Below are positions 20,355 through 51,882 of a stretch of 64,000 bases of DNA, piece by piece. Origin of the DNA: Chitinophagaceae bacterium (GTDB taxonomy: Bacteria; Bacteroidota; Bacteroidia; Chitinophagales; UBA10324); contig JADJAG010000012.1 of NCBI GenBank assembly GCA_016704325.1, positions 105,500 to 169,499 of the forward strand. The letters are read 5' to 3'. The first letter of the stretch is position 1; every line of letters starts with the position of its first letter. The notes under the pieces are model-generated. The model ran no database searches. It was not told the origin of the DNA and saw only the letters and a program-made list of their open reading frames with translations. The position numbers and the translations under genes were made by a program.

Positions 20355-20428
20355 TCCCCGCTTTCAGGGATGTCCATTTTGCCCGAATTCTGTGATGTAC
20401 TTGGCCTCCATACAGTGGCATCTTTGTA
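20355..20428 (+). promoter_or_regulatory. Promoter cassette copy A (degenerate left half-site)
   Basis: tccccgctttcaggga, then 48 nt (..cattttgcccgaattctgtgatg..), then catctttgta at 20419. Confidence 0.6.
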
Positions 20429-20466
20429 TTGTCCTTTAGCAATTATAGGATTTAAAAACAAACACC

Positions 20467-20583
20467 ATGAAAGACAATCACTTCAAACAAATTATTCAGA
20501 ATGCAGTTGTTGAATTAGGTGCATGGGCAATTTCAGGCGCTTTCTTACTGGCTATTATTTGGTTGAAAACCATGTTATTCTAA
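20467..20583 (+). CDS. Small hydrophobic peptide P1 (38 aa), GAW-peptide family
   Basis: MKDNHFKQIIQNAVVELGAWAISGAFLLAIIWLKTMLF. Below the ORF-track size cutoff. Sits 38 nt after the cassette box. Its core is shared with four other copies. Confidence 0.65.
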   Translation: MKDNHFKQIIQNAVVELGAWAISGAFLLAIIWLKTMLF

Positions 20584-20735
20584 GCTCAATAGCGTGTGGA
20601 GGAGCTGCATCCACTGGCGCTCGCAATTAGAAGTGCATATCGCATTTTTCTCTTTCTCCAAAGTGGCGCTGCATTAATAATCAACTATCACTGCCAGATT
20701 CTCTCAAGAAGAATGGTCACTAAAATTTTTGTACA

Positions 20736-22418
20736 ATGAAATCAGGAAGATTGTACTTCACGTTTGTTTGGTCGCTCGTCTGTTTTTTTTCATCTGCACA
20801 ACCTCCGCAATCCCGGCCAAACATTATACTGATTATAGGTGACGACATGCGGTATGATTCATTTGAGCCTAACGGAGGTCCCGCATGGTTCGATTCACCT
20901 GCCATCAATCGCATTGCTGATGAAGGTGCCAACTTTAAGGATTATTTCTGTGTGTACTCACTTTGTACACCTGGGCGCGGCGCTATGCTCACAGGATTGT
21001 ATCCTCACGGCAATGGCGCTATTGACAATAACTCTCCATACTATTCGTACCTACCAACCATTGCCAATATTCTCGATTCTACAGGATATCATACTGCCAT
21101 GATTGGTAAATACCATGCCTATTTTAAACCGCAACCCGGCTGGGATTATTGGATGGCTAGAAGTAAACTTGGAGGCTCCTATATGGATTTAGAATTCAAT
21201 ATTAATGGGGAGTCTAAAATTATTGAAGGACATGTAACACAGATAATAGGCGACTCTTCTGTAAAGATCATTTCAACAATTGATACCCCTTTTTTAGTCA
21301 TGATCGGACATCAGGCCCCGCACCAGCCTGCTTTGCCGCTGCCGGAAGACAGTGGAATTTATGGTAATGAAGAAATGCCGGTACCTTCTTTAGCAAAGTA
21401 TAACAAAAACTATCCTTCCTATTTATATGAGGAGGCTCCACTTTTAACAGAGGAAAATCTTGCGATGAGCATTCAAGCATACTTTGAGTGTGTGAAGGAT
21501 ATTGATGGAAATATAGCCGACATTTTCAATACACTGGAAGAGAGAGGCATTCTGGACAATACCATCCTCATTTTTACCGCCGACAATGGCATGATGAACG
21601 GTGAACACTATCTTAATGGAAAAGGGTTTCCATATGAGCCCTCCATCAGGTTACCGATGTTTATTCGTTATCCGGGATGGTTCGCGCCGAATACAGTAGT
21701 GGATGTACCTATAGGCTTGAATGTTGATGTAGCACCTACTATTCTTGATGCAGCTGGAATAGATCAGGAACCATATCATTTCCACGGACTATCCCTTCAC
21801 AAACTGGCTACCGGGGAGTTAAGCAGGAGTAGAATGATGTATGAAAACATTAAACTGGCTGACGAAAGCGGAGATTCAGGCAAACCTTCTATCCGTTCTA
21901 TACGGAGCAAATATTATAAATACAATTGGTACCGGTGCAGTGAACAAACAGAAGAGTTCTTTGACCTTATTAAAGATCCGGATGAAAGTAAAAACCTGAT
22001 CCTGGATCCTGAATATGCAGCATTGATCGTCACCTACCGGCACACACTCGATAGTTTGCGGTCGGCTTTGCATGATACTTTAGCAGCTGATTCGGTGGTG
22101 AAACCCTGCCACCTGGTAAAGGGCCGGGAGATTAAAGGTATGTATGTGGTAGATAACCCGATACCATTGCTTGATCTCGGCACCAATCCTTTCATTGATA
22201 GGCTAATTGTGAATTTTATGGTCGCAAGTCCGGAGCCTGTTCAAATCAATATTTACAATGCATTAGGCCAGGTGTTAATAAGCAACCGGCTCAAAAATGT
22301 AAATGAAGGAACTTTATCATCCACCGTCTTTGATACTAAGAACCTGCCCGGAGGTATTTATTTGGTGGAGATCATACAGGGTGTAAACCGAAGGTGCGAA
22401 TTTGCAATCAGGGAATAG
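20736..22418 (+). CDS. Sulfatase with T9SS-like CTD
   Basis: PNIILIIGDDMRYD, CxPxR motif CTPGRGAMLTGLYPHGNG, FTADNG. C-terminus is ...GIYLVEIIQG. Confidence 0.9.
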   Translation: MKSGRLYFTFVWSLVCFFSSAQPPQSRPNIILIIGDDMRYDSFEPNGGPAWFDSPAINRIADEGANFKDYFCVYSLCTPGRGAMLTGLYPHGNGAIDNNSPYYSYLPTIANILDSTGYHTAMIGKYHAYFKPQPGWDYWMARSKLGGSYMDLEFNINGESKIIEGHVTQIIGDSSVKIISTIDTPFLVMIGHQAPHQPALPLPEDSGIYGNEEMPVPSLAKYNKNYPSYLYEEAPLLTEENLAMSIQAYFECVKDIDGNIADIFNTLEERGILDNTILIFTADNGMMNGEHYLNGKGFPYEPSIRLPMFIRYPGWFAPNTVVDVPIGLNVDVAPTILDAAGIDQEPYHFHGLSLHKLATGELSRSRMMYENIKLADESGDSGKPSIRSIRSKYYKYNWYRCSEQTEEFFDLIKDPDESKNLILDPEYAALIVTYRHTLDSLRSALHDTLAADSVVKPCHLVKGREIKGMYVVDNPIPLLDLGTNPFIDRLIVNFMVASPEPVQINIYNALGQVLISNRLKNVNEGTLSSTVFDTKNLPGGIYLVEIIQGVNRRCEFAIRE

Positions 22419-22441: not shown

Positions 22442-22515
22442 TCCCTGAATTCAGGGATACGCATTTTACCCGAAACCGGTGATGTAATAGCCTTGCCGGT
22501 AAGGCCATATTTGTA
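22442..22515 (+). promoter_or_regulatory. Promoter cassette copy B
   Basis: Perfect tccctgaattcaggga, then 48 nt (..cattttacccgaaaccggtgatg..), then catatttgta at 22506. Confidence 0.65.
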
Positions 22516-22548: not shown

Positions 22549-22713
22549 ATGTTGAACACTTCCTTCCACACTAATGTTTCAAGCCGGAAATCAGAATCAG
22601 AAAGCGAGCACATCAGCCGTTTAGTGTACAATGTCTTTGTTGAGCTGGGCGCATGGACAGTAGCCGTGGGATTTATCTCCTCCATGCTCCGCATAACAAC
22701 ATCTATTCTATAA
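22549..22713 (+). CDS. Small peptide P2 (54 aa), GAW-peptide family (divergent tail)
   Basis: MLNTSFHTNVSSRKSESESEHISRLVYNVFVELGAWTVAVGFISSMLRITTSIL. Not in the ORF track. Sits 33 nt after the cassette box. Confidence 0.55.
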   Translation: MLNTSFHTNVSSRKSESESEHISRLVYNVFVELGAWTVAVGFISSMLRITTSIL

Positions 22714-23157
22714 AAATCAATAACGGAAATCTCCGCGAAGAAGAGGATCAGTGTGAAGAACTGCAGCAACCTATCAATGTGAATCAGATTTAACAAGTAT
22801 CTGTCAAATATAGCTGCGGTTTTTCACGCATCCTGGTTTAAGGGAAATTAATCATGAATCCCCAAAGAGAACAATATTGTTTTTGTCTATAAAGTAATCG
22901 CACCCGGCCATTTTCACTTTCATCATCATGTATTTGAAACTATGTGTGATTCACAGCAAATTAATCAGCTGCTTAGAAAGGATATCATATCATCGTTTAT
23001 TTTACTGATCCTGATTTTAAGTGCAGCCACAGGTGTATGCCTGTTCCATCCGCTTTCAATTGCTCCGGCAGAAAGTTTATAATAATCTGTCGTATTTCCT
23101 TTTCGGCATTACGCTTTTCATATTCAGAGTACATAGCAGGCAAATCAACTCACCATA

Positions 23158-23223
23158 TTCAGGGAGCACCATTTTACCTGATTTCCATGATGCATTTCCG
23201 TTTGTCATCACCTGATCTTTGTT
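23158..23223 (+). promoter_or_regulatory. Promoter cassette copy H (right half-site only)
   Basis: ttcaggga, then 48 nt (gcacc attttacc tgatttcc atgatg + 21 nt), then gatctttgtt at 23214. The internal phasing is identical to the other copies. Confidence 0.55.
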
Positions 23224-23348: not shown

Positions 23349-23543
23349 ATGAAACTTACAAGAAGAGAGCTGCAAGTGCTTACCCTGATTCAGGAAGGAC
23401 TTACGACCAAGGAAGTTGCTTCCAGGCTGCAAATCAGCACGAGAACGGTAGAGACCTACCGGCGCAACATCAATGAAAAATTGCAGGTGCGTAATGTCAC
23501 CGCTGCCCTTTGCGTTGCCCGGCGCCTTTACCTTATTGAGTGA
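23349..23543 (+). CDS. GerE/LuxR-type HTH-only transcriptional regulator (64 aa)
   Basis: MKLTRRELQVLTLIQEGLTTKEVASRLQISTRTVETYRRNINEKL. The HTH domain makes up the whole protein. Confidence 0.8.
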   Translation: MKLTRRELQVLTLIQEGLTTKEVASRLQISTRTVETYRRNINEKLQVRNVTAALCVARRLYLIE

Positions 23544-23758: not shown

Positions 23759-24088
23759 ATGTTAAGCGCCCATATTCAAAGACGGATTATGAATTCCCGC
23801 AGAACGGAAATTCGCGCTTTTTCAAGAAGTTACCTTTTAACCTCCCGGATATTGGGATGGAACAGTGCTATTAATCGTAGCGCGGCAAGATCTGTTGCCA
23901 TGGGCTTAAGAAGTCCTGGCGCCAACAGGGAAAATAAATCTACCGTTACTGCAGTGAAGCCCGTTGCAAGAAAAATCAATCGCATAGAAGTATTTCTTTT
24001 TAATGTGACTGTTGAAGTGGGTGCCTGGTTGCTCTCAATAGGTTTTTTTGCTGCAAGTATTTGGCTGATCAAAAATTTATTTGATTGA
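23759..24088 (+). CDS. GAW-peptide family member P3 (62-109 aa depending on start)
   Basis: C-terminus is ...KINRIEVFLFNVTVEVGAWLLSIGFFAASIWLIKNLFD. The ORF is open from ATG 23759, with an internal ATG at 23900 (62 aa). There is no canonical cassette upstream. Confidence 0.5.
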   Translation: MLSAHIQRRIMNSRRTEIRAFSRSYLLTSRILGWNSAINRSAARSVAMGLRSPGANRENKSTVTAVKPVARKINRIEVFLFNVTVEVGAWLLSIGFFAASIWLIKNLFD

Positions 24089-24158
24089 ATGCTGGAAGTG
24101 ATATAACGCACTTAACTGTTATCAATTTGTTTAAAATACACGATAAAAATATATAATT

Positions 24159-26264
24159 ATGAAATCCATCCATTTTCTAACAAGCGCACTTGCATTCTTT
24201 GCACTATTCATTACCACAAACATGCTTTCTGCCCAGGTATTGCCTGTTAAGGAGTGGGACAAGCGTTTTGGTGGAAGCGGTTCTGACGCACTGTATACGA
24301 TACAGCAAACCACCGATGGGGGCTATCTCCTTGGAGGGGATTCTGATTCACCGGTAGGTGGTGATAAATCTCAAGGCAGTAAGGGCAGCACAGATTTTTG
24401 GATTTTAAAAACAAATGGAGCCGGAGTAAAGGAATGGGATAAAAGCTTTGGTGGAAATCTTGCGGAGAGTATGTATGCAGTAATGCAAACCAACGATGGA
24501 GGTTTTATTCTCGGTGGTGAATCCAAGTCAGGTATTAGTGGAGACAAAACACAAGATGCCCACGGCGGACTGGACTATTGGATTGTAAAAACAGATGCTT
24601 CCGGAACAAAGCAATGGGATGTAAGATTTGGAGGAAGCGCTGATGATGAACTTCGAAGCGTTCAGCAAACCATTGACGGCGGATATATCCTTGCAGGATT
24701 CTCCAGTTCGGGAATCAGTGGTGATAAATCAGAGGCAGGCCGGGGGGCAACTGACTATTGGTTGGTTAAAACGGATGCGAATGGAATCAAACAATGGGAT
24801 GCCAGGTTTGGGGGAGCATCCAATGATGAATTACGTTCTTGCAGTCAGACCATTGATGGAGGTTACATCCTGGCAGGCTTTTCAAAATCGGTTATCAGCG
24901 GAGATAAGACCATCGCATGCAAGGGTTCAACAGACTATTGGATCGTAAAGATAAATGCAGAAGGTGTAAAACAATGGGATGCCGTGTTTGGTGGAAGTGA
25001 CAGTGAATACCTGTATGCTATTCAGCAAACAGCCGATGAAGGTTACATACTCGGCGGATATTCAGAATCGGGAATCACCGGAGATGTAACAGAGCCGTGC
25101 ATAGGTGGTTTTGATTTTTGGATGGTAAAGACAGATACTTCCGGCGGAAAACAATGGGATAAGCGATTCGGAGGAAGCGGTTACGACAAGCAAAAGTTCA
25201 TTCAGCAGACAACAGATGGCGGATACCTTTTAGCAGGTTGGTCCGATTCAGGTATTAGCGGTGATAAAACACAGGCTAATGTGGGAAATGGTGATTACTG
25301 GGTTGTGAAGACGGATGCTACCGGTGTAAAAATGTGGGATGCTGCATTTGGAGGAACCCTGGACGATAAAATTCATTGTGTTCCACAAACCAATGATGGT
25401 GGTTATCTGCTTGGTGGCTATTCTTACTCTAACTCTGGAGGAGATGTTACACAAGCCAGCCAGGGGTTGAATGATTACTGGATCGTAAAAATTTCATCCA
25501 CTACTTCATTACAAAAATATTTTGTTGATGCAGATGGTGATGGGTTTGGGAATCCGGCACATGATACACTTTCTATGTTGCCACCATCCGGATTCGTTAC
25601 TAATAATAAAGATTGTGAAGATAGCCATCCTGAAATACATCCCGGAGCAGATGATCTATGCAATGGCATTGATGACAATTGCAACCTGCTGACAGATGAA
25701 AATGCTATGGCTATACCTAATATTTCACCGGCAGGTAGTATGGCAATATGTCCCGGCACACAGGTAACGTTTGCTACTGAATATACAGATAATGTCTCTT
25801 ACCAATGGATCAAAAACGGAGTTATCCTTTCCGGAGCAACTGGTCTGACTTTTCAAACCGGCAACAACGGAAGTTACGCGGTCGCAGCCACAAATGGATA
25901 TGGATGCAGTGCCATTTCCGCAGTTACGTTGATCAGTAAGCTAACAGGTCCTAACGCCGAAATAATACCATTGGGTGATTTGAATATTTGTCAATCAATG
26001 CAGGTTGCTTTACAAGCCAATGCAGGTTTCGGGTTTAATTATCAATGGCTGAATGGAAACAACAATATTCCCGGAGCAACCAATCAGATCTATGTTGCGA
26101 CCAAGGCTGCATCATACAAAGTAAAAGTTACTAATGGAGACGGTTGCAGCAAGCATTCGCCGGCTGTCCAGGTTACCAAATTATGTAAGGAGATTGCATC
26201 ATCAGAAACGGACAAAGCGGTTCAGCTTTACTTTATCCGAATCCAACGAAAGGAAGATTCATAA
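24159..26264 (+). CDS. Secreted 60-aa-repeat protein (7-8 repeats) plus MopE-like motif plus Ig-like domains; frameshifted before its T9SS CTD
   Basis: Signal peptide present. WD(K/A)(R/S)FGG...QQT.DGGY..(G/A)G...S...GDK........D(Y/F)W.VKT...G repeats with about 60-aa period. DADGDGFGN...DCEDSHPEIHPGADDLCNGIDDNCN. The frame ends at 26264 just where YPNP would begin. Confidence 0.8.
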   Translation: MKSIHFLTSALAFFALFITTNMLSAQVLPVKEWDKRFGGSGSDALYTIQQTTDGGYLLGGDSDSPVGGDKSQGSKGSTDFWILKTNGAGVKEWDKSFGGNLAESMYAVMQTNDGGFILGGESKSGISGDKTQDAHGGLDYWIVKTDASGTKQWDVRFGGSADDELRSVQQTIDGGYILAGFSSSGISGDKSEAGRGATDYWLVKTDANGIKQWDARFGGASNDELRSCSQTIDGGYILAGFSKSVISGDKTIACKGSTDYWIVKINAEGVKQWDAVFGGSDSEYLYAIQQTADEGYILGGYSESGITGDVTEPCIGGFDFWMVKTDTSGGKQWDKRFGGSGYDKQKFIQQTTDGGYLLAGWSDSGISGDKTQANVGNGDYWVVKTDATGVKMWDAAFGGTLDDKIHCVPQTNDGGYLLGGYSYSNSGGDVTQASQGLNDYWIVKISSTTSLQKYFVDADGDGFGNPAHDTLSMLPPSGFVTNNKDCEDSHPEIHPGADDLCNGIDDNCNLLTDENAMAIPNISPAGSMAICPGTQVTFATEYTDNVSYQWIKNGVILSGATGLTFQTGNNGSYAVAATNGYGCSAISAVTLISKLTGPNAEIIPLGDLNICQSMQVALQANAGFGFNYQWLNGNNNIPGATNQIYVATKAASYKVKVTNGDGCSKHSPAVQVTKLCKEIASSETDKAVQLYFIRIQRKEDS

Positions 26265-26517: not shown

Positions 26518-26533
26518 TCCCTGAATTCAGGGA
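26518..26533. promoter_or_regulatory. Palindrome copy F (palindrome only, non-canonical spacing)
   Basis: Perfect tccctgaattcaggga sits 14 nt after the 26503 stop. A catctttgtg box follows after only 23 nt. This could be an operator, a terminator hairpin, or both. Confidence 0.4.
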
Positions 26534-26604
26534 TTGTAATCGCTGCAAATGGCACTCATCTTTGTGCTGATAAAAGGCAGCAACAGAAATGAGTATTGAG
26601 ATTC

Positions 26605-26646
26605 GAGTAATGAGTGGTGAGTAATGAGTAATGAGTGGTGAGTAAG
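26605..26646. repeat. 7-bp tandem repeat (GAGTRRT) x6
   Basis: gagtaat gagtggt gagtaat gagtaat gagtggt gagtaag. Confidence 0.85.
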
Positions 26647-26933: not shown

Positions 26934-28300
26934 ATGTTTCACACAAACCTTTACTCAAATAAGTTTGCGAAAACTATTGTTGTCCTTTTTGCAATCCTGC
27001 TCATAGACTTCTGGCAATATTCTCCTGCAAAGCACAAATACCCGGCACATGGACTCTCACCGGTAGCATGAATACGCCCCGTGTCTTCTGCTGCTGTCTT
27101 GTTACAAAGCGGCAAGGTACTTGTTTGTGGAGGTGGGGATGGTAGGTCAGACACTTGCCAGTGCAGAATTGTATGATCCGAATACAGGCATGTGGACGAT
27201 CACAGGTAGCATGGCTTGGCCCGCCCAGGTCATTCTGCCACTCTTCTTCCTGACGGAAGAGTTCTCATCGCGGGCGGATTGGTTTGCTTTATGCCTGTAC
27301 AACCGGAGAGTGCGGAAATCTATGACCCTTTAACAGAGATATGGACGCAATACAGCAAGCATGCAAGGTTCTCGTTGGGCGCATCGCGGCAGTATTGATT
27401 ACATCGGGAACTTTGCTGGCCAAGTTTTAGTAACCGGAGGGTCCTTAAACTCAAGTGAGGCGACTATGGAAATTGCAACATTGGCGATGCGGATTTACAA
27501 ACATCAGAGTTATACGATCCTGTTGCAGGACATTGGTCAGCACATCTAATCTGCCTGTTGGAAGATATTGGGATGGATCCCAGCCAATAGCAACATTACC
27601 TGATGGTAACATACTGATAGTTGGAGGTTGGAATTGCTGTCCATACCAGGCAATTAATGAAGCTGAAATATTTGACCTCACAAATCAATCATGGGTCAAG
27701 CGACAGCTAAAAGCAACTACAGCTAACTATGCTCCGATCGTTCTCAACACTGGCAAAGTGCTGGTTGCAGGGGGTGACAATGGTATACAGCCATCTAACG
27801 TAGATGTTGCAACCGCAGAACTATTTTGATCCGTTTACCGGAACATGGACCGCCACTGGAAATATGACGATTGGTAGAAATAATCATTCTGTTTCGCGAC
27901 TTGCTTAAAATGGACAGGTTCTTGCCTCAGGTGGTCATCATGGCGGGTGGGGAGTATGTTACGACTTGAATAGTTCAGAGCTTTTCGACCCTCATCAGGA
28001 ACCTGGTCACTAACCGGAAGCATGAATGGTCAAGGAGTGGACATACATCTAATGACCTTGTCCAAGCGGGCAAATTCTGGCGGTGGTGGCTCTTATTGGC
28101 TCTCCAGCGCCGAACTCTACACTCCCCCTTGCATAAGCGGTAGTACGATCTATGCTGACACCGATGGTGATTCATACGGAGATGCATCAAACAGTATAAT
28201 CGCCGAATCCTGTGATCTTCCTTTCGGTTACGTACTTAACAATACAGATTGCAACGATGCAGATGCCCTCCATTCATCCCGGCACAGAAGAAGTAATTAA
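26934..28300 (+). pseudogene. Kelch-repeat (galactose-oxidase-like) secreted protein, multiply frameshifted
   Basis: Kelch-like pieces sit in different frames: [18 protein letters not shown] (27121 ORF), [19 protein letters not shown]...[12 protein letters not shown] (27216), GQVLVTGG (27361), TLPDGNILIVGG...AEIFDLTNQSW...GKVLVAGG (27455), SAELYTPP...DTDGDSYGD (28022). Confidence 0.65.
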
Positions 28301-29225
28301 TTGCCTCGATGATAACTGCAACGGAATCATTGATGAAGGTAAGTGGATACAAAAAGCAAACTTCGCGGGTTCTGCCAGAGTCAATGCTGCTTCATTTACT
28401 ATTGGAGATAAGGCCTACCTCGGCACAGGAAAAACTTCAAGTGGTTCTTATCTGAAGGACCTGTGGGAGTATGATCCTGTTACCAATGTCTGGACACAGA
28501 AAGCAGACATGGGTGGAAAAAAAAGGTGCAAGGCAGTAGGATTTGCCATCGGAAACAAAGGTTATATCGGAACAGGATATGACCAGGATGGTTCTTTGAT
28601 AAAAAGCTTTGGGGAATATGACGTGGCTACCAATAGCTGGACGCAGAAGGCCGACTTCGGTGGTAGCGGAAGACAAAACGCTGTGGGCTTTGCTATCAAT
28701 GGCAAAGGATACATCGGCACCGGCGGAAACTTCTTAACACAGCACAATGATTTCTGGGAATATGATCCTGATACTAATCAGTGGACACAGAAAGCCAACG
28801 TGGGAGATACGTTAAGAGAAGCAGCCGTGGGATTTTCCATCGGAGAAAAAGGATACATCGGAACAGGCAGCAACAGCAATGGTTACAAAAATGATTTCTG
28901 GGAATATGATCCCACAACTGATACATGGACAGAGAAATCCGATTTCGCAGGCGGAGCAAGAAGTTCAGCATCCGGATTTTCAAATGACAGCAAGGGATAC
29001 CTGGGAACAGGATGGGATGGAAGCAGTCTTCATAAAGATTACTGGCAGTACGATCCGCTCACCGACACCTGGAATCAGATTGCCGATTTCGGCGGAACAG
29101 CACGCGCTTATGCAACCGGATTTTCAGTAAGTGGTAATTGCTATGTAGCAACCAGGAGGGCGATACATCAGGAAATGCGTACTATGATCTGTGGCAATAT
29201 GATCCTCCTCCCTTTGTTGGGTTAA
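28212..29225 (+). CDS. 'WEYDP' Kelch-like repeat segment (7 repeats), probably the middle part of the same broken gene
   Basis: Repeats of (F/L)WEYDP.T..WTQKADFGG..R..AVGF(A/S)I..KGYIGTG. Preceded by a MopE-like motif. The GTG 'start' is only a track artefact. The frame breaks again near 29140-29230. Confidence 0.6.
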   Translation: MIFLSVTYLTIQIATMQMPSIHPGTEEVINCLDDNCNGIIDEGKWIQKANFAGSARVNAASFTIGDKAYLGTGKTSSGSYLKDLWEYDPVTNVWTQKADMGGKKRCKAVGFAIGNKGYIGTGYDQDGSLIKSFGEYDVATNSWTQKADFGGSGRQNAVGFAINGKGYIGTGGNFLTQHNDFWEYDPDTNQWTQKANVGDTLREAAVGFSIGEKGYIGTGSNSNGYKNDFWEYDPTTDTWTEKSDFAGGARSSASGFSNDSKGYLGTGWDGSSLHKDYWQYDPLTDTWNQIADFGGTARAYATGFSVSGNCYVATRRAIHQEMRTMICGNMILLPLLG

Positions 29226-29231
29226 CGGTAT

Positions 29232-41351: not shown

Positions 41352-41425
41352 TCCCTGAATACAGGGAAGCACTTTTTAGCGGAATCCTGTGATGTTTACG
41401 GCCTGCACAAGAGGGCATTTTTGTA
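41352..41425 (+). promoter_or_regulatory. Promoter cassette copy E
   Basis: tccctgaatacaggga, then 48 nt (..ctttttagcggaatcctgtgatg..), then catttttgta at 41416. Confidence 0.6.
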
Positions 41426-43570: not shown

Positions 43571-43644
43571 TCCCTGAATTCAGGGATGCTCATTTTAGCC
43601 GGAATCAGTGATGTAATCAGGCCCCTTGTAACGTCATATTTGTA
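43571..43644 (+). promoter_or_regulatory. Promoter cassette copy D
   Basis: Perfect tccctgaattcaggga, then 48 nt (..cattttagccggaatcagtgatg..), then catatttgta at 43635. Confidence 0.65.
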
Positions 43645-43684: not shown

Positions 43685-43849
43685 ATGAAGAACTCCGGCA
43701 ACAATGCAATCGAAATGAATACTCGTTTTTCAGTTGATAGCAATTATGTTAAACAGTTTCTTCTTAATGCCGGAATTGAAACCGGAGCCTGGTTGCTTTC
43801 TGCCGGCTTCTTTGCAGGTATTTCCTGGCTGGCTGCAAGTATGTTTTAG
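43685..43849 (+). CDS. Small peptide P5 (54 aa), GAW-peptide family
   Basis: MKNSGNNAIEMNTRFSVDSNYVKQFLLNAGIETGAWLLSAGFFAGISWLAASMF. Not in the ORF track. Sits 40 nt after the box. Confidence 0.6.
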   Translation: MKNSGNNAIEMNTRFSVDSNYVKQFLLNAGIETGAWLLSAGFFAGISWLAASMF

Positions 43850-44067: not shown

Positions 44068-45330
44068 CTATTGCAAAACAATGTTTCCGTCTGCATCGGT
44101 TTTTATCAGGCACATCGTAAAAATGAAGGTGCCGGAATGTTCATACCCGCCAATCAGATACCCGCCATCTTTTGTTTGTTCGACGGACACTGCGGTAAAT
44201 GCATTGAATCCTTTGAATTCTCTGTGCCATTCTTCATTAAGATCCTTACCCAGTTTAAGCAGGTACATATGGTTGCTGCTTACCAGGTAGATATCTATCA
44301 TTTCGTTGGTGGTAGCCGACATAATGTAGCCTCCATCACTGGTCTCTGCCAGTCCTCCGGCATGTCCCAAGTTCATGAAATCGGAGTAAGATCCTGATGT
44401 ATCTGATAGATTCCCCTCCATATCAAGCTGCTGTGTGTACAATGTGCCAATCAGGTCACTGATATTCGTATTAGCATACGTGCTTTTTCCTCTGGAACCA
44501 AAGAGGATGATGGAGGATTCGGATTCGGTGACGATCATTCCTTTGGTACTTATAGATTCTTTTGTATCAGTCAAAAAGGTATGCCACAGCTCATCATAAT
44601 TATTATCTAACCTTAAACAAAAACTAATGACGGGATCGGTTTCCGTAACGTCTGCATTATAGGTGGAACCACTGATCGTATAACCTTTATTGTCTTTGCA
44701 GAGGCCTCTGGTCATAATCAGTTTCCAACCCGGTATATTAAAGTCAAATACGATAGGGCTCTTAGCAACTCCATTTTCTTCAACAGGTAATACAAAGGGA
44801 TAATATTCCTTTTTATCCTTGTTCTCGATGGTTCCGGCAATCAGCAAACTACCGGATTCCGCCCTCTCGAAAAGTGGAGGCATCAGTGGACCCGATACTA
44901 AATCAGGCACGGTATAATTCTTCAGACTACCCTCGATCACTATTCCTGACGAAGCATTAATCCTGCATACGCTGATTACAGAAGCAGCGGTACCTGTTGT
45001 ACCCACAGCCATCAGGATGGAATCTGATATTGATATTGATTTCACTGTACAATAGTGAAAAGCGGGAGAAAGTGGATTTTTCCAAATGATAGTTCCTTTA
45101 CTATCACACTTAATAATGAGTGGAGGATAGCTGTTATTTTCAGGAGGAAATCCATAGACCACAAAATTACCGTCTGCTAATTGGAAAGCGCCTCCGGTTT
45201 GATAGCTGGTGTCGGATGGAAACATACGCAGGAACACGTTGGAAGGGGAAGTGAGATCAGTTGATTTGTTGCAACCCGTGGAAAGGATGCAGCATACAAG
45301 AGCAGGTAGCAGCCAGGGATAAAATTTCAT
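44068..45330 (-). CDS. Lipoprotein with degenerate 'DGGY' beta-propeller-like repeats (last gene of the STAND operon)
   Basis: Lipobox LSTGC. C-terminal ...ETSDGGYIMSATT...YLLKLGKDLNEEW...VEQTKDGGYLIGGYE...LIKTDADGNIV echoes the 58-aa repeat. Sits 3 nt from the upstream gene. Confidence 0.7.
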   Translation of the reverse strand: MKFYPWLLPALVCCILSTGCNKSTDLTSPSNVFLRMFPSDTSYQTGGAFQLADGNFVVYGFPPENNSYPPLIIKCDSKGTIIWKNPLSPAFHYCTVKSISISDSILMAVGTTGTAASVISVCRINASSGIVIEGSLKNYTVPDLVSGPLMPPLFERAESGSLLIAGTIENKDKKEYYPFVLPVEENGVAKSPIVFDFNIPGWKLIMTRGLCKDNKGYTISGSTYNADVTETDPVISFCLRLDNNYDELWHTFLTDTKESISTKGMIVTESESSIILFGSRGKSTYANTNISDLIGTLYTQQLDMEGNLSDTSGSYSDFMNLGHAGGLAETSDGGYIMSATTNEMIDIYLVSSNHMYLLKLGKDLNEEWHREFKGFNAFTAVSVEQTKDGGYLIGGYEHSGTFIFTMCLIKTDADGNIVLQ

Positions 45331-45333
45331 GGG

Positions 45334-46608
45334 TCAAAAATTTCCGTTTTTATTAGTCTTAATGATTTCAAGATAGAAATGATCGTTGCCGAAACTCTGT
45401 ATCATCGTTTGAATAGCATAATGTCCATCCGGCATAGCACAAAGGGAACCCAGGTAATCGTAATAATGATTCTGAACGAAGGAGACCGATTGAACCGTAA
45501 GATCCGGGTTAAGGCGTGCAATAAAAGAGCTTTGTTTGCCTACATAAAAGGTGCCGACTAATCGTATCGGGTTGAATCCAATCAGCAAGCCACCGTCAGT
45601 TGTCAGTACCAGGTCGGCGGCCATATTTTGGAAATCGTGTTTCAACCGTTCATAATCAATAACCTCACCGTCAGCATTAATCTTCAGAATGCGTGCACTG
45701 TTATCGTCATCTGAGTAAGCAGGAAGACCGTTTATATTGGGTAAATTATATTTTTGATTGTATGCACAGGCATAAAAATTATTATCTGCACTTGAAATGA
45801 TGTCGCTTGTAAAACAGTAATAGCCATGGTAGGTACCACTGTCTGGTCCTGTTGAAGTGTAACTGCTCGTTTCATGTACTTTGGTCCATAATGAATCCCC
45901 AAATTCATTCACCCTCAACAAGAAGAAGGAACTGATTAGCGGAACTTTTTCCTGGATACTGCCAATCATTATATAACCTGATCCGTGATCAACTTCAGCA
46001 CATCCGGTAACAGTAATTTCAGGGCCTTCCGGAAAATCGTAATGCTGCATCCAGATTTTTTGACCATCTTCTTTATTGATCTCGATTAAAAAGGCCATGC
46101 TTACTCTTTCACCGTTTTTTCTGTAAAAGACTGTTCCGCTGATCATATAGTTTCCGGCTGAATTTTTAAAGAGTTTCACTCCGAGCAAGTCTCTGAATTC
46201 CCCGGAAATAATACGTAACGGATAGGAACCGAACATTACGTTATTGGTATCCATAGTAAGCGTGATCATCCCATTTGAATAGGAGACCATCAGTATCCTG
46301 TTTTCGTCGGTGATCAGAAAATCATAGATGGTAAAATGAGTAAATTCTTTTCGCCAGATCAATTTGCCGTTTTTATCAAGCTTGATCAGTGCCGAACTGC
46401 TGTCTGCTTTATAGTCTGTGTAATTATAGGAACAATACAGATTATTGTCCTGATCAGGTCTGATTTTTCCCGGTAAGCGAGCAGGTGTATCGGAAATTAC
46501 CTTTATCCATTCTGCATCACCTGTATTTTGCCCTATGGGATCTTTTTTGCAGGAAATAAATATCAAAAATGGAATTGCAAAAAGGAACAGGATAATTAGA
46601 CGTCTCAT
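45334..46608 (-). CDS. Lipoprotein, beta-propeller-like
   Basis: Lipobox FISC. Motifs ..LIKLDKNGKLIW.., ..TTDGGLLIG... Sits 5 nt from the upstream gene. Confidence 0.65.
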   Translation of the reverse strand: MRRLIILFLFAIPFLIFISCKKDPIGQNTGDAEWIKVISDTPARLPGKIRPDQDNNLYCSYNYTDYKADSSSALIKLDKNGKLIWRKEFTHFTIYDFLITDENRILMVSYSNGMITLTMDTNNVMFGSYPLRIISGEFRDLLGVKLFKNSAGNYMISGTVFYRKNGERVSMAFLIEINKEDGQKIWMQHYDFPEGPEITVTGCAEVDHGSGYIMIGSIQEKVPLISSFFLLRVNEFGDSLWTKVHETSSYTSTGPDSGTYHGYYCFTSDIISSADNNFYACAYNQKYNLPNINGLPAYSDDDNSARILKINADGEVIDYERLKHDFQNMAADLVLTTDGGLLIGFNPIRLVGTFYVGKQSSFIARLNPDLTVQSVSFVQNHYYDYLGSLCAMPDGHYAIQTMIQSFGNDHFYLEIIKTNKNGNF

Positions 46609-46613
46609 GTTGT

Positions 46614-47627
46614 TTATTTTTTAGTCCTGTAAGCAAGCGTATAATAGGCCCCTGCATTTATTTGCAGGTTGTCCATTCTGAAATCATCGTCAATATAATA
46701 GTACTTGTAGAGGTTAATGTCATCCGCATACCTCGTTCCTTCTTTATTTACCAGGTCGGGAAAATAAGTGTACCGGACATTTGCAAATACGCCAAATGCT
46801 TTAATAGCATAACTCACACCGGCTGTTCCGAAGTAGCCGATATTGGTAGTGTTTCGCAAAGCCGTTCTGTTTACCAGATCAGTCTGATCATCACGGGTGG
46901 TAGTACTCAAGGCCTGTCCCAGAAAAGAAAAATCAACACCTGCCTGCAGGTAAGGCTTCAGGGAGCCTTGTAAAAAATAATACTTCAGCGATAGCGGCAA
47001 ATCAAAGTACGTGAGTTTTTCTTTGTATTGTACGGTGCTGTTGTTGATGCTGTCAAGCGTATGCGTGTACCTGGTTGTTCGCAGGCCGAATTCAAGTTCA
47101 ATCCACAAGTCTTTGTAGGCTCGTTTTTCTATTCCAATACCAAACTGGTAACCGGGGTTGGATTTATAACTTGCCAGTCCGGGTGCATCATCAGCGTGAA
47201 CCACAGAATACGTTTGCACCACATCAATGATGGGCCAGTTTATGCCACCGTTGATACCCAAAGCGAGGGTAGGTTCTGGCCTGAACTTTTCAAACAAAGA
47301 GGACAGCCTTGGATCATCCTTAAATTTATCAGGCGTATAGTTTGGGTTGACTTTCATTACGTCCATAGCGGAAGCATCAGCCGCTTCCAGGTTGTCAATG
47401 GATAGATAAGATAGTATCAGTAACTTGCCTGCTTCTATCCTGTCTTGCTTTGAAAGCGGACAACCTGCCAGTGTAGCATTCAATACCTTGATAGCGCGAT
47501 CAAAATTTCCGTCATCGTAATCGACTCCCGCACTTTTTAAATTCGCTATGCAGGTATCTGTTTGTGCCCGTGCGAAATTATAGTGCAATACCAGTATAAT
47601 AATTAGTAGTGAAGCTACCCGAAGCAT
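46614..47627 (-). CDS. Outer-membrane beta-barrel protein with N-terminal TPR-like helical region
   Basis: Signal peptide MLRVASLLIIILVLHYNFARAQ from ATG 47627. Helical N-domain. Then alternating-hydrophobic strands (LALGINGGI, YQFGIGIEK, WIELEFGLR, YLQAGVDFSF, GYFGTAGVSYAI, GVFANVRYTYF, LQINAGAYYTLAY). Confidence 0.6.
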   Translation of the reverse strand: MLRVASLLIIILVLHYNFARAQTDTCIANLKSAGVDYDDGNFDRAIKVLNATLAGCPLSKQDRIEAGKLLILSYLSIDNLEAADASAMDVMKVNPNYTPDKFKDDPRLSSLFEKFRPEPTLALGINGGINWPIIDVVQTYSVVHADDAPGLASYKSNPGYQFGIGIEKRAYKDLWIELEFGLRTTRYTHTLDSINNSTVQYKEKLTYFDLPLSLKYYFLQGSLKPYLQAGVDFSFLGQALSTTTRDDQTDLVNRTALRNTTNIGYFGTAGVSYAIKAFGVFANVRYTYFPDLVNKEGTRYADDINLYKYYYIDDDFRMDNLQINAGAYYTLAYRTKK

Positions 47628-47829
47628 GAAGGAGCCACAAGCCGTATACCTTATATACAATACTGAAATATTTTGACTTGTATGGTCCATATCGTATTTC
47701 AAGATTTGCTAATGATCAATTATATCCTTCAGTTTTTAGTAATCTCTAAAAACCGGCTCATTTACTACTTCCTCATTCTTTTCTCCTATCGGTTAAGAAT
47801 GAAGATTTTTTGGAGCTGCTTAAATTAAA

Positions 47830-50679
47830 CTATTGCAGTTCAGGTTTTAATTTTTTGTAAGGTTCATTCGATCCGATATACGTGTTCCATTCTTCCGTAG
47901 TGAAGTTGCGGGTGATTTCATTCAGCAACAGGGTGCTGAGGTGTTCTGTTTTTAAATCAAATTGCCTGATGGCGTTATCAGCGCATGCAACAAAGACCTT
48001 TCCATCAGGAGAAAGCGTAAGTGCCAGCACTTGCCGGTTGATATCCTTTATTACAATAGGTTTCAAAGCAAGGTTGGCAAGATTATAGACATAGATTGAC
48101 CGGTTGCCAGATACAGAAACCAATACATTCAGGGTTTCATCAATGGCTATGAAATCGACACTATTAGTATTATCGGTAAGAATTTTTACGAGGTCTCCTT
48201 TGTGATTATAGAGATGAATTTTTCCATCAGAACTTCCGAAACCGAGAAAGTTACCATTGGTACTGTAGGTACCAGACTGTATTCTTGCCGGTCCATTATT
48301 TCCGATCAATTTCTTTGAACTGGAAGGAATGTGTTGCAAGTACATTTTGCCATCCTCGGTGCCAACAGCCAGTGTGTTTTTATCGTTGCTCATTCCAAGT
48401 GATTTAATACGGGTCTCAAATGGATATTTTTGCAGCGCTGTATTTTGTGACCAAACAATAACGGTGCTGTCACGTCCTCCCGTTGCAAACAGGCTTTCAT
48501 CATGGCTAAAGGCAGCATCACGCACCAAACCGCGATGACCCGTTAGGCGCGGAGAAACAATCTGCTTTTCTGAATCATAGAAGAGAATAGAATGATCTTC
48601 ATAAGCAGCAATGGCCAACTTTCCGTGTTGACAGAGATAGCCCGTATTCAACATCATGTTATTACCCGGTATTTGCAATGTCTTTTGCAAAGAATATTCG
48701 GTGGAAGAATACCGGGATAATGATCCGTCGATGCACAAAACAGCAATGCTCTTGCCTTCGTTATCAAAGGCAATGGTTTTCACTTCTTTTCTAGCCTGGA
48801 TAATAATCGGTTGAAAGCCCGTATCCATTTTTTTCAGGTTTTCATAAAGTGCACTATAAAGTTCAGGATCCTGTGTATTCCCGCCGTTTGCTTCACTCAG
48901 CAAATAGGATTCGCACGCTAACAATGCGGCAAGTTGTTTATCATTGGTAGCTTGAAGCGATTGAAAAGCAAGTGCCTGGCTTAATGCAAGCTGGCGCAGG
49001 CGATTTGCTTCCGACTGTGCGGAGTCTGCTTTCTGCCGTTGCACTTCTGCTTCACGTGTCTTCTGTTCGGCCACCTGCTTCTCCTGTAAAGCAATTTGTT
49101 GCTGGGCGATGGCAAACTCCGACTGCTCACTTGCTTTTAATGCTTCTTGCTCTGCAATTATTTTCTGTTCTCCGGCAATCTTTGATTGTTGCTCCGCATA
49201 TAGTTTAGCTTCTACAGCCTGTTTTGATGAAAGCAGTGCCAGTTCGTTTGATTTTTCCGCAAGGTCTTTTTGATTAAGGGCTTCCTGTGTTTTTTGACTG
49301 GCAATTTCCGTTTGTATCATAGCTTCATTACGTTGCCTGATGGAAAAAACTGTGAAGCCCGAGAGAATGATGATCAATGCAAGGCTTGCTCCCAGCGCCA
49401 CATTTCTTCGACGGTTTCTTTTTCTGCGAACGGTGCGTTTGCTTTTATCAATGAACTGTTTCTGTTCCGGATTTAGAAACAGCTTGTTTTCAAATGGTGC
49501 CAGGTATTGCAGGTCAGCATCGCCCAGCAGGATGGAACGTTTCTGAAAATCGTTGTAGCGGTTGATGATAAAGTGGCGCACTTCCAGCAACTGTTTTTCC
49601 ACCCAACTTATTTGGTCATAGATTTTTGCAGCCAATGCATCATGCCGTAATTCATACTTGCCGTTGTCATCCATTTCTTTAAGGATGCGAAGGTCAACGA
49701 ATTGACGAAGTTCCGGTTCTATGTCCTCCTGCGTCAGCTCTTTACCTAATGCCCTGGTAAAATCGATAATCTCAGAAAGAGACATCTGTTTTTTAGTGCC
49801 TTCATCAGAAACAAAAGATTTCAGGATGGCAAGGGTATTTTCCGGGCTTTTTGTTTTTGCAATTTGTTCATCCAGGAATTCCGCAAGCACATCAGTAATC
49901 TGTCCCGTGCGTTCCAGTAATGCTTCATTGAAAACAGGATGCGCAGGATCGGAAATCACAGCCTCTTTATAAAGTTTATCAAGATATACCTGCAGGTAGG
50001 TAAGCTCCACCGCCGATTTTTCACTGCCTAACCGTTCCAATACTTTTTCCGGAAAATTGTCAGCTACTTCCAGGTTGAAAAGGCCGGCTGGTTCGGTAAT
50101 CACACGCTTTGCATTGGCGCGTGTCATGCGTTCGATGTGAATACGGTTATTGAAAAAGTCAGGTATTTGATCTTCAAACCTGGCAATATGTTCAAGATAT
50201 TCCCCGCGAATGACAAATATGAATTTGCAGCTTAGTCCACTTCCCAATGCCTCATGAAGTGCTTTTACAAACTGTTCCATTTCGGCATCGGATCCGAAAA
50301 TGAATAACTCTTCAAACTGATCGAACAATAAGTAAACAGGTTTGAAGTAATCGAGGTAAACGGATTTGATATTTTGAGAGAGGGAATTCTTTTCTGACAA
50401 AGGCACCAGGGATAAGCCCACCAATGCTTTTCTTAAAGAATCGTTGATGTTGGCGCCACGCCTGATTAGAACCGGCATCCAGTCGGCATCCTGGAACTTT
50501 CCTGCGAGTCCGCACTGAATCAGGCTGGTCTTTCCTGTTCCGCTGGATCCGTATACCAGCAACAGGTTACTGTCGAATGTTTTGTAGTATAGTTCTTCCA
50601 CTTCCCGTTCGCGGCCGAAGAAGATATCGCGATCTTCGCTGGTATAAGAGTCGAGAAATTTGAAGGGGGTTTTCGCCAT
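47830..50679 (-). CDS. Membrane-anchored P-loop (STAND-like) NTPase, then TM helix, coiled coil and WD40 repeats
   Basis: N-terminus is PFKFLDSYTSEDRDIFFGREREVEELY. Walker A GSSGTGKTS (nt 50527-50553). Walker B VYLLFDQFEE. Basic stretch RRKRNRRRN followed by VALGASLALIIILSGFTVFSI (nt ~49339-49401). Q/E/A-rich coiled coil. C-terminal WD40-like repeats (..GHRGLVRDAAFSHDESLFATGGRDSTVIVW..). Confidence 0.8.
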   Translation of the reverse strand: MAKTPFKFLDSYTSEDRDIFFGREREVEELYYKTFDSNLLLVYGSSGTGKTSLIQCGLAGKFQDADWMPVLIRRGANINDSLRKALVGLSLVPLSEKNSLSQNIKSVYLDYFKPVYLLFDQFEELFIFGSDAEMEQFVKALHEALGSGLSCKFIFVIRGEYLEHIARFEDQIPDFFNNRIHIERMTRANAKRVITEPAGLFNLEVADNFPEKVLERLGSEKSAVELTYLQVYLDKLYKEAVISDPAHPVFNEALLERTGQITDVLAEFLDEQIAKTKSPENTLAILKSFVSDEGTKKQMSLSEIIDFTRALGKELTQEDIEPELRQFVDLRILKEMDDNGKYELRHDALAAKIYDQISWVEKQLLEVRHFIINRYNDFQKRSILLGDADLQYLAPFENKLFLNPEQKQFIDKSKRTVRRKRNRRRNVALGASLALIIILSGFTVFSIRQRNEAMIQTEIASQKTQEALNQKDLAEKSNELALLSSKQAVEAKLYAEQQSKIAGEQKIIAEQEALKASEQSEFAIAQQQIALQEKQVAEQKTREAEVQRQKADSAQSEANRLRQLALSQALAFQSLQATNDKQLAALLACESYLLSEANGGNTQDPELYSALYENLKKMDTGFQPIIIQARKEVKTIAFDNEGKSIAVLCIDGSLSRYSSTEYSLQKTLQIPGNNMMLNTGYLCQHGKLAIAAYEDHSILFYDSEKQIVSPRLTGHRGLVRDAAFSHDESLFATGGRDSTVIVWSQNTALQKYPFETRIKSLGMSNDKNTLAVGTEDGKMYLQHIPSSSKKLIGNNGPARIQSGTYSTNGNFLGFGSSDGKIHLYNHKGDLVKILTDNTNSVDFIAIDETLNVLVSVSGNRSIYVYNLANLALKPIVIKDINRQVLALTLSPDGKVFVACADNAIRQFDLKTEHLSTLLLNEITRNFTTEEWNTYIGSNEPYKKLKPELQ

Positions 50680-50685
50680 TTTTCA

Positions 50686-51720
50686 TCATGCTGTAACACG
50701 CGGAGAATCAAGAATGCTATTGATCATATCATTAAACTGCTGCAAAAGATCCGGGTAACTGCTTAATTGGGACAAGTCACATTTCTCCGTTACTTCTGTG
50801 CCTACATAATGCAGTTTTCCATATTGAAATTTGGTGTAAAGAAAAATGTCTTTCTTGATAGAAAACTTTTCCTTCTGGTCGATCACTTCTGTTCTTGTGT
50901 CAATTATAAGCGGCGAGAGATTCAGGTATTCATGAGGCTCATTAATGTCCTTGAGTAATAGCACGGCATTGCTGTCTGCAAATATTCCATGTTGAACTTC
51001 TGTGCCTTTAAAGTCAGAATCGGAACTATTCAATAAGTCCATCAGGTGATTGAAAGATGCATTGCGGTGTTTCTTTTTCAAAACATTGATCTGCCGAACT
51101 GTAACCAGTTTATAGTTGATGAAAAAGGAAATATGCTGCAGGATAGACGAAAGTTTTTCCTGGTATTCCACACAGCGCTTTTCAATCTCATCAGTAGTAA
51201 GGTTGATCTGGTAATGGCCGATTTCATTTCTTTCCGGTACCCAGAAATCAAGCAGTTCAAAGAAGTTATTGCTGAAGCAGGTACTCTTGCCCGTAAAGTG
51301 TGACGTTTGTGATTCTGTGAATACTTTGCAGATTGCCCTGATCAGCCATGAATAACTTCCGAGTGTGAGTTGGTTAAACCTGTTTTGAAACTGCAACATG
51401 AAGTCATCAGACAAAACAACCTTATTTTTCAACCGCTCTTCCCATAACTGCGCGACCAATACGAAGGAAAGGAATTGCATGGTTCGTTCAATGGTTTTAA
51501 ACACCTGGTCCAGTCTCCCGCGATCGAGGTTGCGCATGGAACCAGAAAATAGCCGGCGTAACTCCACACCAATTGGCCAGGGCAGATTACGAATGATGAG
51601 GTCGCCAAGTATCCTGGTATCCACTTCTTCATCCACTTCGTCAGCAATCAGGTATTTCTGTAATATAGGTTTGTGTTCAGCCATCCTGGAGAATACATCC
51701 CTGATGAGTAGCTCATTCAT
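50686..51720 (-). CDS. Hypothetical alpha-helical protein with Rx4H (HEPN-like) motif, first gene of the STAND operon
   Basis: The ATG at 51720 gives MNELLIRDVF (the track start 51753 is TTG). ERNEIGHY is at nt 51214-51231. Its stop is 6 nt from the NTPase start. Confidence 0.6.
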   Translation of the reverse strand: MNELLIRDVFSRMAEHKPILQKYLIADEVDEEVDTRILGDLIIRNLPWPIGVELRRLFSGSMRNLDRGRLDQVFKTIERTMQFLSFVLVAQLWEERLKNKVVLSDDFMLQFQNRFNQLTLGSYSWLIRAICKVFTESQTSHFTGKSTCFSNNFFELLDFWVPERNEIGHYQINLTTDEIEKRCVEYQEKLSSILQHISFFINYKLVTVRQINVLKKKHRNASFNHLMDLLNSSDSDFKGTEVQHGIFADSNAVLLLKDINEPHEYLNLSPLIIDTRTEVIDQKEKFSIKKDIFLYTKFQYGKLHYVGTEVTEKCDLSQLSSYPDLLQQFNDMINSILDSPRVTA

Positions 51721-51809
51721 AGGTTGATCCGATAATCCAAATGATGCAACCAATTTAGTAATAATATTTAGTATTTATTCTCAAAAGTTGACTGAATTAA
51801 AACTGGTTA

Positions 51810-51882
51810 GCCAAAAGTATAGCGGCGTTGCCAATAGGTTATCCCTGAATACCGGTATTTTGGTTATCCCTGAAATCAGGGA
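51810..51882 (-). promoter_or_regulatory. Promoter cassette copy G, oriented toward the minus-strand STAND operon
   Basis: Read on the minus strand: tccctgatttcaggga, then 47 nt (taacc aaaatacc ggtattca gggata ...), then tacttttg (plus-strand 51812-51819, a perfect TAnnTTTG). The spacer is 15/22 identical to the attttaccggaattctgtgatg block of the plus-strand copies. Confidence 0.6.

Follow-up and report, generated by a model that had tools for sequence, protein, structure and literature searches.

The 64-kb window analyzed here (64,000 nucleotides of contig JADJAG010000012.1 of a Chitinophagaceae bacterium; "the window" refers to this whole stretch) contains repeated cassettes in which a 16-bp palindrome lies at a fixed distance upstream of a promoter-like box, the first of them directly downstream of the genes for a sensor histidine kinase and a response regulator. 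The palindrome, TCCCTGAATTCAGGGA, has a 7-2-7 structure and eight matches at three or fewer mismatches in the window against 0.30 expected, a number reached by none of 100 shuffled windows. The matches begin at 20355 (three mismatches), 22442, 26518, 38903, 41352 (one mismatch), 43571, 51842 (three mismatches) and 51867 (one mismatch), and the right half-site is present at 23158, within the distal site of the cassette designated H below. A perfect TCCCTGA-AT-TCAGGGA dyad is found at four of the window sites and also in related sequences (L012, L029, L031, L032 and L038), and the variant in L036 (TCCCAGAATTCTGGGA) retains the dyad.

Palindrome, second site and promoter-like box

In six plus-strand copies (A at 20355, B at 22442, H at 23150, C at 38903, E at 41352 and D at 43571) an interval of exactly 48 nt separates the palindrome from the 10-nt box CAT(A/C/T)TTTGTA, which is replaced by GATCTTTGTT in H; the downstream ATGs lie 33-125 nt past the 10-nt box, and the predicted leaders are 31-45 nt long in most cassettes. 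A degenerate pattern of the internal sub-structure and the box matches only these six (A/B/H/C/E/D), against 0.25 matches expected in the window. A reading made earlier from the letters of this DNA (the sequence-only reading) had reported the amplified palindrome and its exact 48-nt phasing, the half-site at 23158 and the distances to the ATGs, all of which our analysis bears out. The sites in its list of copies are likewise present, but the degenerate copy at 51842, 25 nt before 51867, had been missed, and the palindrome at 26518, correctly named, does have a box that had been overlooked, at 23 nt rather than at 48.

The 48 nt had also been described as a row of separate motifs (ATTTTACC / (C/G)GAAT(T/C)C / GTGATG), a description that has to be replaced, as the cassette alignment shows this sub-structure to be a degenerate second copy of the palindrome, offset by 25 bp. 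This proximal copy begins 9 bp past the distal palindrome and ends 23 nt before the box. In cassette A it reads TGCCCGAATTCTGTGA (12/16 match), and the proximal 16-mer scores 10-12/16 in all six plus-strand cassettes, at the 25-bp offset each time, when 16-mers scoring 10/16 or more make up 0.24% of the window. In relatives the score is 12-14/16 in most cassettes, L038 being weaker and the single exception. The distal sites follow the consensus TCCC(T/A)GAATTC(A/T)GGGA and the proximal ones T-a/g-c/g-C-n-GAATTC-t-G-t-GA, with an invariant TG, 21 bp that are not conserved and the box coming next; the degenerate proximal copies keep the sequence of the palindrome but not its self-complementarity. 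The palindrome of cassette F (26518) occupies the proximal position, 23 nt from the 10-nt box CATCTTTGTG, and is without a distal partner. The pair at 51867 and 51842, which has no plus-strand box at 51867, is a cassette on the minus strand (G), with the same 25-bp offset, 22 nt, and then TACTTTTG, a perfect TAnnTTTG. The window therefore appears to hold eight promoters of one design, six with two sites on the plus strand, one with two sites on the minus strand and one with a single site.

On the plus strand, cassette A (20355..20426) consists of a distal site at 20355-20370 (13/16), a proximal site at 20380-20395 (12/16) and the box CATCTTTG at 20419-20426, with a predicted transcription start at about 20431. 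Cassette B (22442..22513) has its distal site at 22442-22457 (16/16), its proximal site at 22467-22482 (10/16), the box CATATTTG at 22506-22513 and a predicted start at about 22518, and cassette H (23150..23221) has a distal site at 23150-23165 (12/16, with the right half-site intact), a proximal site at 23175-23190 (11/16), the box GATCTTTG at 23214-23221 and a predicted start at about 23226. Cassette F (26518..26564) has the single perfect site at 26518-26533, followed after 23 nt by CATCTTTG at 26557-26564 and a predicted start at about 26569; the distal position matches at 5/16, so that there is no distal site. Further downstream lie cassette C (38903..38974; distal site 38903-38918, 16/16; proximal site 38928-38943, 11/16; box CATATTTG at 38967-38974; predicted start about 38979), cassette E (41352..41423; distal site 41352-41367, 15/16; proximal site 41377-41392, 10/16; box CATTTTTG at 41416-41423; predicted start about 41428) and cassette D (43571..43642; distal site 43571-43586, 16/16; proximal site 43596-43611, 10/16; box CATATTTG at 43635-43642; predicted start about 43647). 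On the minus strand, cassette G (51812..51882) runs from a distal site at 51882-51867 (15/16) and a proximal site at 51857-51842 (13/16) over 22 nt to the box TACTTTTG at 51819-51812, with a predicted start at about 51807. An nhmmer search with a cassette profile found no further full copies in the window, and an additional 11/16 site at 28200, inside MopE-motif coding sequence, was dismissed as a chance match.

Mean pairwise identity, computed across 13 cassettes, is 0.87 in the distal site, 0.72 in the proximal site, 1.0 at the TG that follows it and 0.84 in the box, and is 0.38 in the 21-nt spacer and 0.30-0.40 in the flanks (0.30 on the 5' side of the distal site). Sites and box are conserved and the spacers are not, a footprint such as protein-binding sites at fixed spacing should leave. 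The box reads CAnnTTTG in five of the six plus-strand window copies and in most relatives, which matches seven of the eight positions of the Bacteroidota TAnnTTTG element; the exceptions are GATCTTTG in H, TATCTTTA in the cassette L033a and TACTTTTG in G (8/8). The likeness to TAnnTTTG claimed by the sequence-only reading therefore stands at 7/8 but not as an exact match, and we infer from it that the box acts as the -7 element. From the -33 TTTG element the TG alone is present, 21 nt upstream of the box and invariant in 13 of 13 aligned cassettes.

In Flavobacterium the sigma-A TAnnTTTG box lies at -12..-5 (PMC9723704), and all site positions given here are conditional on the same assignment. 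If the box is at -12..-5, the proximal site would extend from -51 to -36 (centre -43.5) and the distal site from -76 to -61 (centre -68.5), which agrees with the palindrome centre of -65 to -70 proposed earlier, and the invariant TG would fall at -35/-34, where the Bacteroidota -33 element lies. The proximal operator near -43.5 would then probably be the site from which RNA polymerase is contacted. The core promoter appears to be systematically sub-consensus (C at -12, -33 reduced to TG) and looks deliberately weak, which fits dependence on an activator.

The kinase/regulator pair and its relatives

The sensor histidine kinase (17607..19301, plus strand) combines an N-terminal TPR region with HisKA_3 and HATPase_c domains (Pfam), and a hydropathy scan predicted no membrane segment in it. 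Metagenomic copies of the kinase begin about 33 codons earlier (597 aa). At 17508-17606 of the window the N-terminus of the kinase is out of frame relative to these copies, reading HEYVW*RKISKL where L001 has MNIVGEEKISKL; the discrepancy sits in and around an A-run and reflects either a genuine frameshift, by which the kinase would be shortened to 564 aa, or an error of the assembly. The response regulator (19298..19936, plus strand) is a REC + GerE protein of the NarL/FixJ family (Pfam, NCBIfam) and a candidate for binding the palindrome. Among solved structures VraR and NarL are its closest relatives; it scores far below the NarL equivalog cut-off (NCBIfam) and is a generic member of the NarL/FixJ family. 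The two genes lie directly upstream of cassette A. From the stop codon of the regulator into the 420-nt gap before that cassette, about 12 tandem copies of the 8-nt unit GTTAAATT occupy 19924-20035, and in strain L005 the place of cassette A after the regulator gene is taken by a DDE transposase.

A second regulator gene, downstream of cassette H, encodes a 64-aa protein that consists of the GerE domain (23349..23543, plus strand; Pfam GerE). This GerE-only protein shares 50% identity with the helix-turn-helix (HTH) domain of the response regulator, and the recognition helices of the two are near-identical (RTVETYRRN vs HTVESHRKN in the response regulator). Among the window open reading frames (ORFs) that were searched there was no sigma or anti-sigma gene, and an alternative sigma factor was rejected on this ground.

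The rigid layout described above is found again in at least 16 cassettes, which come from no fewer than six lineages and lie just downstream of orthologues of the kinase and the regulator. Matches to the response regulator and to the peptides encoded after the cassettes came only from metagenome assemblies and from metagenome-assembled genomes (MAGs) labelled Chitinophagales. A scan of 185,579 genomes, one per species, with the half-site and the sub-structure as query gave 20 matches against about 17 expected by chance, of which one, L012, is real, and the element therefore seems confined to a narrow clade. L012 is a Chitinophagales MAG whose flanking genes have 73-79% nucleotide identity to the window; the orthologous cassette D there has retained both palindrome and proximal site, together with the TG, CATATTTGTA and the spacing of 48 nt, but its 21-nt spacer differs, and a peptide of the same family follows. 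A metagenome scan in which the perfect palindrome and CATNTTTGT could be anywhere from 20 to 50 nt apart yielded four contigs; the gaps were 48, 48, 48 and 49 only, and two of the contigs (L029 and L031) are without nucleotide similarity to the window.

The regulator orthologues form a group at 66-98% identity, the next relatives being at 56% or less. In the four at 76-81% identity (L033, L036, L038 and L041) a cassette lies directly past the regulator stop codon, in L002 one directly follows the orthologous regulator as well, and one or two extra cassettes occur nearby in L033, L036 and L041. Orthologues of the kinase precede the regulator in L033, L034/L036 and L038. In L040 the system has decayed, with kinase and regulator fragmented and a proximal-like site alone remaining, and in L043, which encodes a divergent peptide, the box is present and the proximal position scores 7/16, the contig being too short to show a distal site. 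The architecture of the cassettes, its conservation and its co-occurrence with the regulator are direct observations, and the core unit is kinase - regulator - cassette - peptide.

Several of these relatives show variations of their own. L032 has two perfect palindromes 22 bp apart centre to centre (6619-6656), with a third weak site and a box 49 nt past the second palindrome, a three-site variant of the cassette. The contig L034/L036 (Ga0134121_10000095) encodes two paralogous regulators, with 79% and 78% identity to the window protein and a distance of 3.3 kb between them; the second is without a kinase of its own and would be transcribed from a cassette-peptide unit, which suggests direct autoregulation. 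In L038 (12118-15556) a cassette-peptide-GerE unit, in which an orthologue of the GerE-only protein follows the peptide, is succeeded by genes for KaiC-like ATPases, by two for KaiB and by one for a PAS histidine kinase.

Genes downstream of the cassettes

The ORFs that follow cassettes A, B, C and D encode small membrane peptides of 38-54 aa behind predicted leaders of 31-38 nt and are mutually paralogous. Peptide A (20467..20583) and peptide C (39010..39126) have 38 aa, the former with a VELGAW motif, and peptide B (22549..22713; P0001 is identical) and peptide D (43685..43849) have 54 aa, all on the plus strand. They share a polar N-terminus, an (N)xxxE-x-GAW motif and a hydrophobic segment. 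No Pfam or NCBIfam model covers this rare family, which has only 22 matching clusters among 1.84 billion representative proteins; this count includes P0130 (1156 aa), a repetitive false positive that was rejected as a member. Peptides of the family also follow the cassettes in L012, L033, L036 (twice), L038 and L041. The downstream genes had been regarded earlier as unrelated, a view that the paralogy of the peptides after A, B, C and D contradicts, as does the repeat cargo gene after cassette E, which shares the 5' leader sequence of the peptides.

Peptide A is followed by a gene for a sulfatase with a C-terminal type IX secretion system (T9SS) sorting domain (20736..22418, plus strand; Pfam), and this neighbourhood of peptide, regulator and sulfatase recurs in L036 and L041. 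Downstream of the GerE-only gene lie a 109-aa ORF and a 701-aa repeat protein with Ig_7 CHU_C-associated and MopE motifs (23759..26264, plus strand), which from their co-orientation probably belong to the same transcription unit as the GerE-only gene. The region after cassette F (26934..30107, plus strand) comprises a frameshift-broken Kelch-repeat gene (26934-28212), a Kelch gene (28212-29225) and a MopE/T9SS protein (29232-30107). The first of these Kelch genes contains several frameshifts, and its leader of about 370 nt holds a short tandem repeat (GAGTAATGAGTGGT...) at 26590-26645.

Beyond peptide C, a T9SS cargo gene with SBBP/delta-60-type repeats (39370..40933, plus strand) is split by a 1-nt frameshift and corresponds to a single 520-aa gene in the close relative L008; in the window it is divided into ORFs of 154 and 372 aa, and the repeat spacing at about 39800 is 175 rather than 174 nt. 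Cassette E precedes the repeat T9SS cargo gene (41473..43482, plus strand) mentioned above, whose true start is probably the ATG at 41473 (signal peptide MKTRTMLLAILFALSNASA) and not the ATG within the cassette. Downstream of cassette G on the minus strand, a five-gene operon (44068..51753) encodes a 355-aa protein to which no family could be assigned, an nSTAND1-WD40 NTPase (949 aa), an outer membrane protein (OMP) beta-barrel and two proteins of about 420 aa that resemble beta-propellers. In L033 and L036 the same operon adjoins the kinase/regulator pair; a publication consulted on the STAND operon (PMC7159879) was not informative.

T9SS C-terminal sorting domains are carried by most of the large ORFs of the window. 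A repeat family of about 58 aa (period 174-180 nt; W-Q-K-x-x-G-G...D-G-G-Y-I-V-A-G...D-Y-W-I-V-K-L), with weak SBBP/delta-60 beta-propeller scores, extends over at least eight T9SS cargo genes, with repeats at 24200-25450, 31100-32400, 35800-38500, 39400-40600, 41600-42700, 52500-53700 and 56800-57600. Enzymes of sulfur esters are enriched in the window, with three T9SS-tagged sulfatases, a T9SS arylsulfotransferase and a sulfotransferase (6221-7909, 12179-16257, 20736-22418 and 63189-63941). A gene for an IS200-type Y1 transposase lies amid the T9SS cargo cluster at 30269-30730.

A candidate two-component regulon and its alternatives

Our data suggest that the cassettes are most likely activator-dependent promoters of one two-component regulon of the NarL/FixJ type in an uncultured Chitinophagales bacterium, and the earlier proposal of a phased promoter of one regulon tied to the neighbouring GerE-type regulators agrees with the finding of the same layout after every orthologous kinase/regulator pair examined. 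We infer from the sequence that the regulator is the binder, that it activates rather than represses, and where transcription would start. Each two-site cassette would offer two tandem 16-bp 7-2-7 operators, each for a dimer of a NarL/FixJ-family protein with a GerE HTH domain. The phosphorylated response regulator (19298-19936), partnered with the soluble TPR-HisKA_3 kinase (17607-19301), would fill the strong distal site, and the distal dimer would help a second dimer onto the weak proximal site beside the -33 region, from where it would recruit RNA polymerase; in cassette F the proximal site is perfect and a helper site would be dispensable. The GerE-only protein may act at the same sites as a competitor or a partner, and the soluble TPR kinase may receive feedback from the peptides. 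The targets of such a regulon would be the four small membrane peptides, the GerE-only regulator, T9SS cargo (the sulfatase and the repeat and Kelch proteins) and the STAND-NTPase operon, and the peptides would be the first and most conserved of them.

Promoters with related features are known from other phyla. In LuxR/TraR class II promoters the palindrome abuts the -35 equivalent and a dimer with a GerE-type HTH recruits RNA polymerase. The cassettes resemble these lux-box promoters in the predicted position of the palindrome beside the -35 equivalent and in the predicted GerE-type HTH reader, but the LuxR/TraR proteins have an autoinducer-binding domain and a single 18-20-bp box, whereas the regulator here has a receiver domain. 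Small membrane proteins are among the main targets of LiaR. The VraR/LiaR promoters of Firmicutes (vraSR R1/R2) are also similar to the cassettes in joining a conserved upstream site to a less conserved promoter-proximal site, and VraR is the closest solved homologue of the regulator. At its own promoter VraR binds the conserved R1 without phosphorylation and the less conserved R2 only as a phospho-dimer (PMC6612188). The two systems differ in phylum, operator sequence and sensing module, there is no LiaF-like partner here and the kinase is without a membrane segment, and homology of the regulons is not implied.

A close parallel in operator structure is with NarL/NarP. Output domains of the NarL family bind 7-2-7 inverted heptamers as a dimer, and activating 7-2-7 sites lie at -40..-49 in napF and at -38..-47 in yeaR (PMC4549865). 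Like these Escherichia coli operators, the putative operators of the cassettes are 16-bp inverted heptamers with a 2-bp gap that would be read by a REC-GerE regulator; the activating sites of NarL are centred at about -42 to -45 (PMC4549865), compared with a predicted centre of -43.5 for the proximal site, and the outer T-CC...GG-A bases of the palindrome resemble TACCCCTAAAGGGGTA. In its sequence the cassette has the features of a NarL-family operator, the binding of dimers being putative. Unlike in the NarL system, the half-site is TCCCTGA rather than TACYYMT, a second and stronger site is present at a fixed 25 bp upstream, the host is a member of the Bacteroidota with a -33/-7 rather than a -35/-10 promoter, and the kinase is a soluble TPR protein in place of NarX/NarQ. 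The predicted promoter itself is like the Bacteroidota sigma-A promoter (-33 TTTG / -7 TAnnTTTG) in its box (7/8; 8/8 in G) and in the TG 21 nt upstream (PMC9723704), but departs from it at the first T of the box, which across lineages is a C in almost every copy, and in the -33 element, of which the TG is all that remains where a TTTG would be expected about 19-21 nt upstream of the box.

Several observations weigh against a regulon of activator-dependent promoters read by this response regulator. Recognition by sigma-A is an assumption, given that C stands in the box for the consensus T and that only TG is left of the -33 element. The 25-bp spacing from centre to centre corresponds to about 2.4 helical turns and would put the two dimers on different faces of the DNA, which is not the usual geometry for cooperative binding, and L032 has two perfect sites at 22 bp. 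The cassettes within one genome are paralogous and so are not independent observations. The outgroup regulator in L042 (52% identity) has a similar recognition helix and is without a cassette, so that similarity of the helix alone does not predict the site. The second GerE protein, with its similar recognition helix, could be the true or an additional binder. The same architecture would then have another reader, either the GerE-only protein (23349-23543) or an unlinked regulator, or the two GerE proteins would divide the sites, the distal one going for example to the regulator and the proximal one to the GerE-only protein. The 50% identity of the GerE-only protein to the HTH of the regulator speaks for this, as does the fact that its gene is itself a conserved cassette target, in the window (H) and in L038; the proximal site also deviates consistently, being TTCTGTGA rather than TTCAGGGA, which could reflect a second specificity but could equally reflect overlap with the -33 element. 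However, the GerE-only gene was not seen in the 10-20 kb fetched for L033, L036 and L041, although cassettes adjoin the regulator there, and we regard a different or divided readership as rather unlikely.

The sign of regulation is not fixed by sequence alone, and as members of the NarL family also act as repressors, NarL itself at frdA (PMC4549865), the sites might be repressor operators at which the regulator or the GerE-only protein holds the promoters off until a signal arrives. Both sites lie wholly upstream of -33, however, without overlap with the -7 box or the predicted start, and the core elements are off consensus alike in every lineage (C at -12, TG at -33), as is typical of promoters that require an activator, which makes repression improbable. 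A still more remote explanation is that the palindrome is a structural or genomic repeat, such as a terminator or a hairpin like the repetitive extragenic palindromes (REP), a structured RNA, or the end of a mobile element (a miniature inverted-repeat transposable element, MITE, or a mobile promoter). The palindrome could form a 6-8 bp hairpin if transcribed, B sits 24 nt past an upstream stop codon, and F has a T-run on the minus strand, but the distance from the upstream stop codon varies from 24 to about 420 nt, no copy has a U-tract on the coding strand, and the proximal copies keep the sequence without self-complementarity. No T-run follows any plus-strand copy, the minus-strand run at F being without a gene to terminate, and a scan for terminators and the sigma-70 consensus gave nothing beyond chance, the only terminator-like palindromes being that of A, with a weak 6-bp stem, and that of F, where the strand is the wrong one. 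An RNA motif was rejected after single-strand folding of five cassettes gave the palindrome hairpin and no other shared structure, and there was no Rfam match at gathering score in the whole window. The IS200-type transposase and the evident multiplication of the cassettes within genomes might point to mobility; against this, no terminal repeats or target duplications were seen and no mobile-element ends were found, homology stopping at the distal site on the 5' side, nhmmer found no copies away from gene starts, and the cassette keeps a syntenic position in L012 and, in all relatives, behind the regulator gene. Outside the clade the 185,579-species scan was at chance level (20 matches vs about 17 expected). 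Terminator, REP element, RNA motif and mobile element are all left without support, and the same holds for the mobile promoter module suggested by the sequence-only reading.

With the cassettes taken as promoters activated through the regulator, the novelty lies in the sequence of the operator, in the rigid two-site geometry on a -33/-7 promoter of the Bacteroidota, in the lineage and in the peptide family that goes with it; the general concepts of transcription control are left unchanged. Activator-dependent promoters have seldom been dissected in Bacteroidota, and we know of no such case in Chitinophagales. The cassette provides a testable model promoter with a defined operator, a fixed geometry (-68.5 / -43.5 / -33 TG / -7 box) and natural one- and two-site variants. 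For an uncultured lineage it would tie a kinase/regulator pair to the regulon that the pair probably controls, it draws attention to small membrane peptides of an unannotated family as the conserved first target, and its position-specific pattern is usable for annotating the regulon in related genomes. More speculatively, the soluble TPR-HisKA_3 kinase, the NarL-type regulator and the E-x-GAW peptides might form a previously undescribed three-component circuit in Chitinophagales, in which the N-terminal tails of the peptides, short and cytoplasmic, would be ligands or membrane tethers read by the TPR domain of the kinase. If this were true, the circuit would provide feedback or signal relay over T9SS surface proteins and the STAND-NTPase operon, with the GerE-only protein as a second layer on the same operators.

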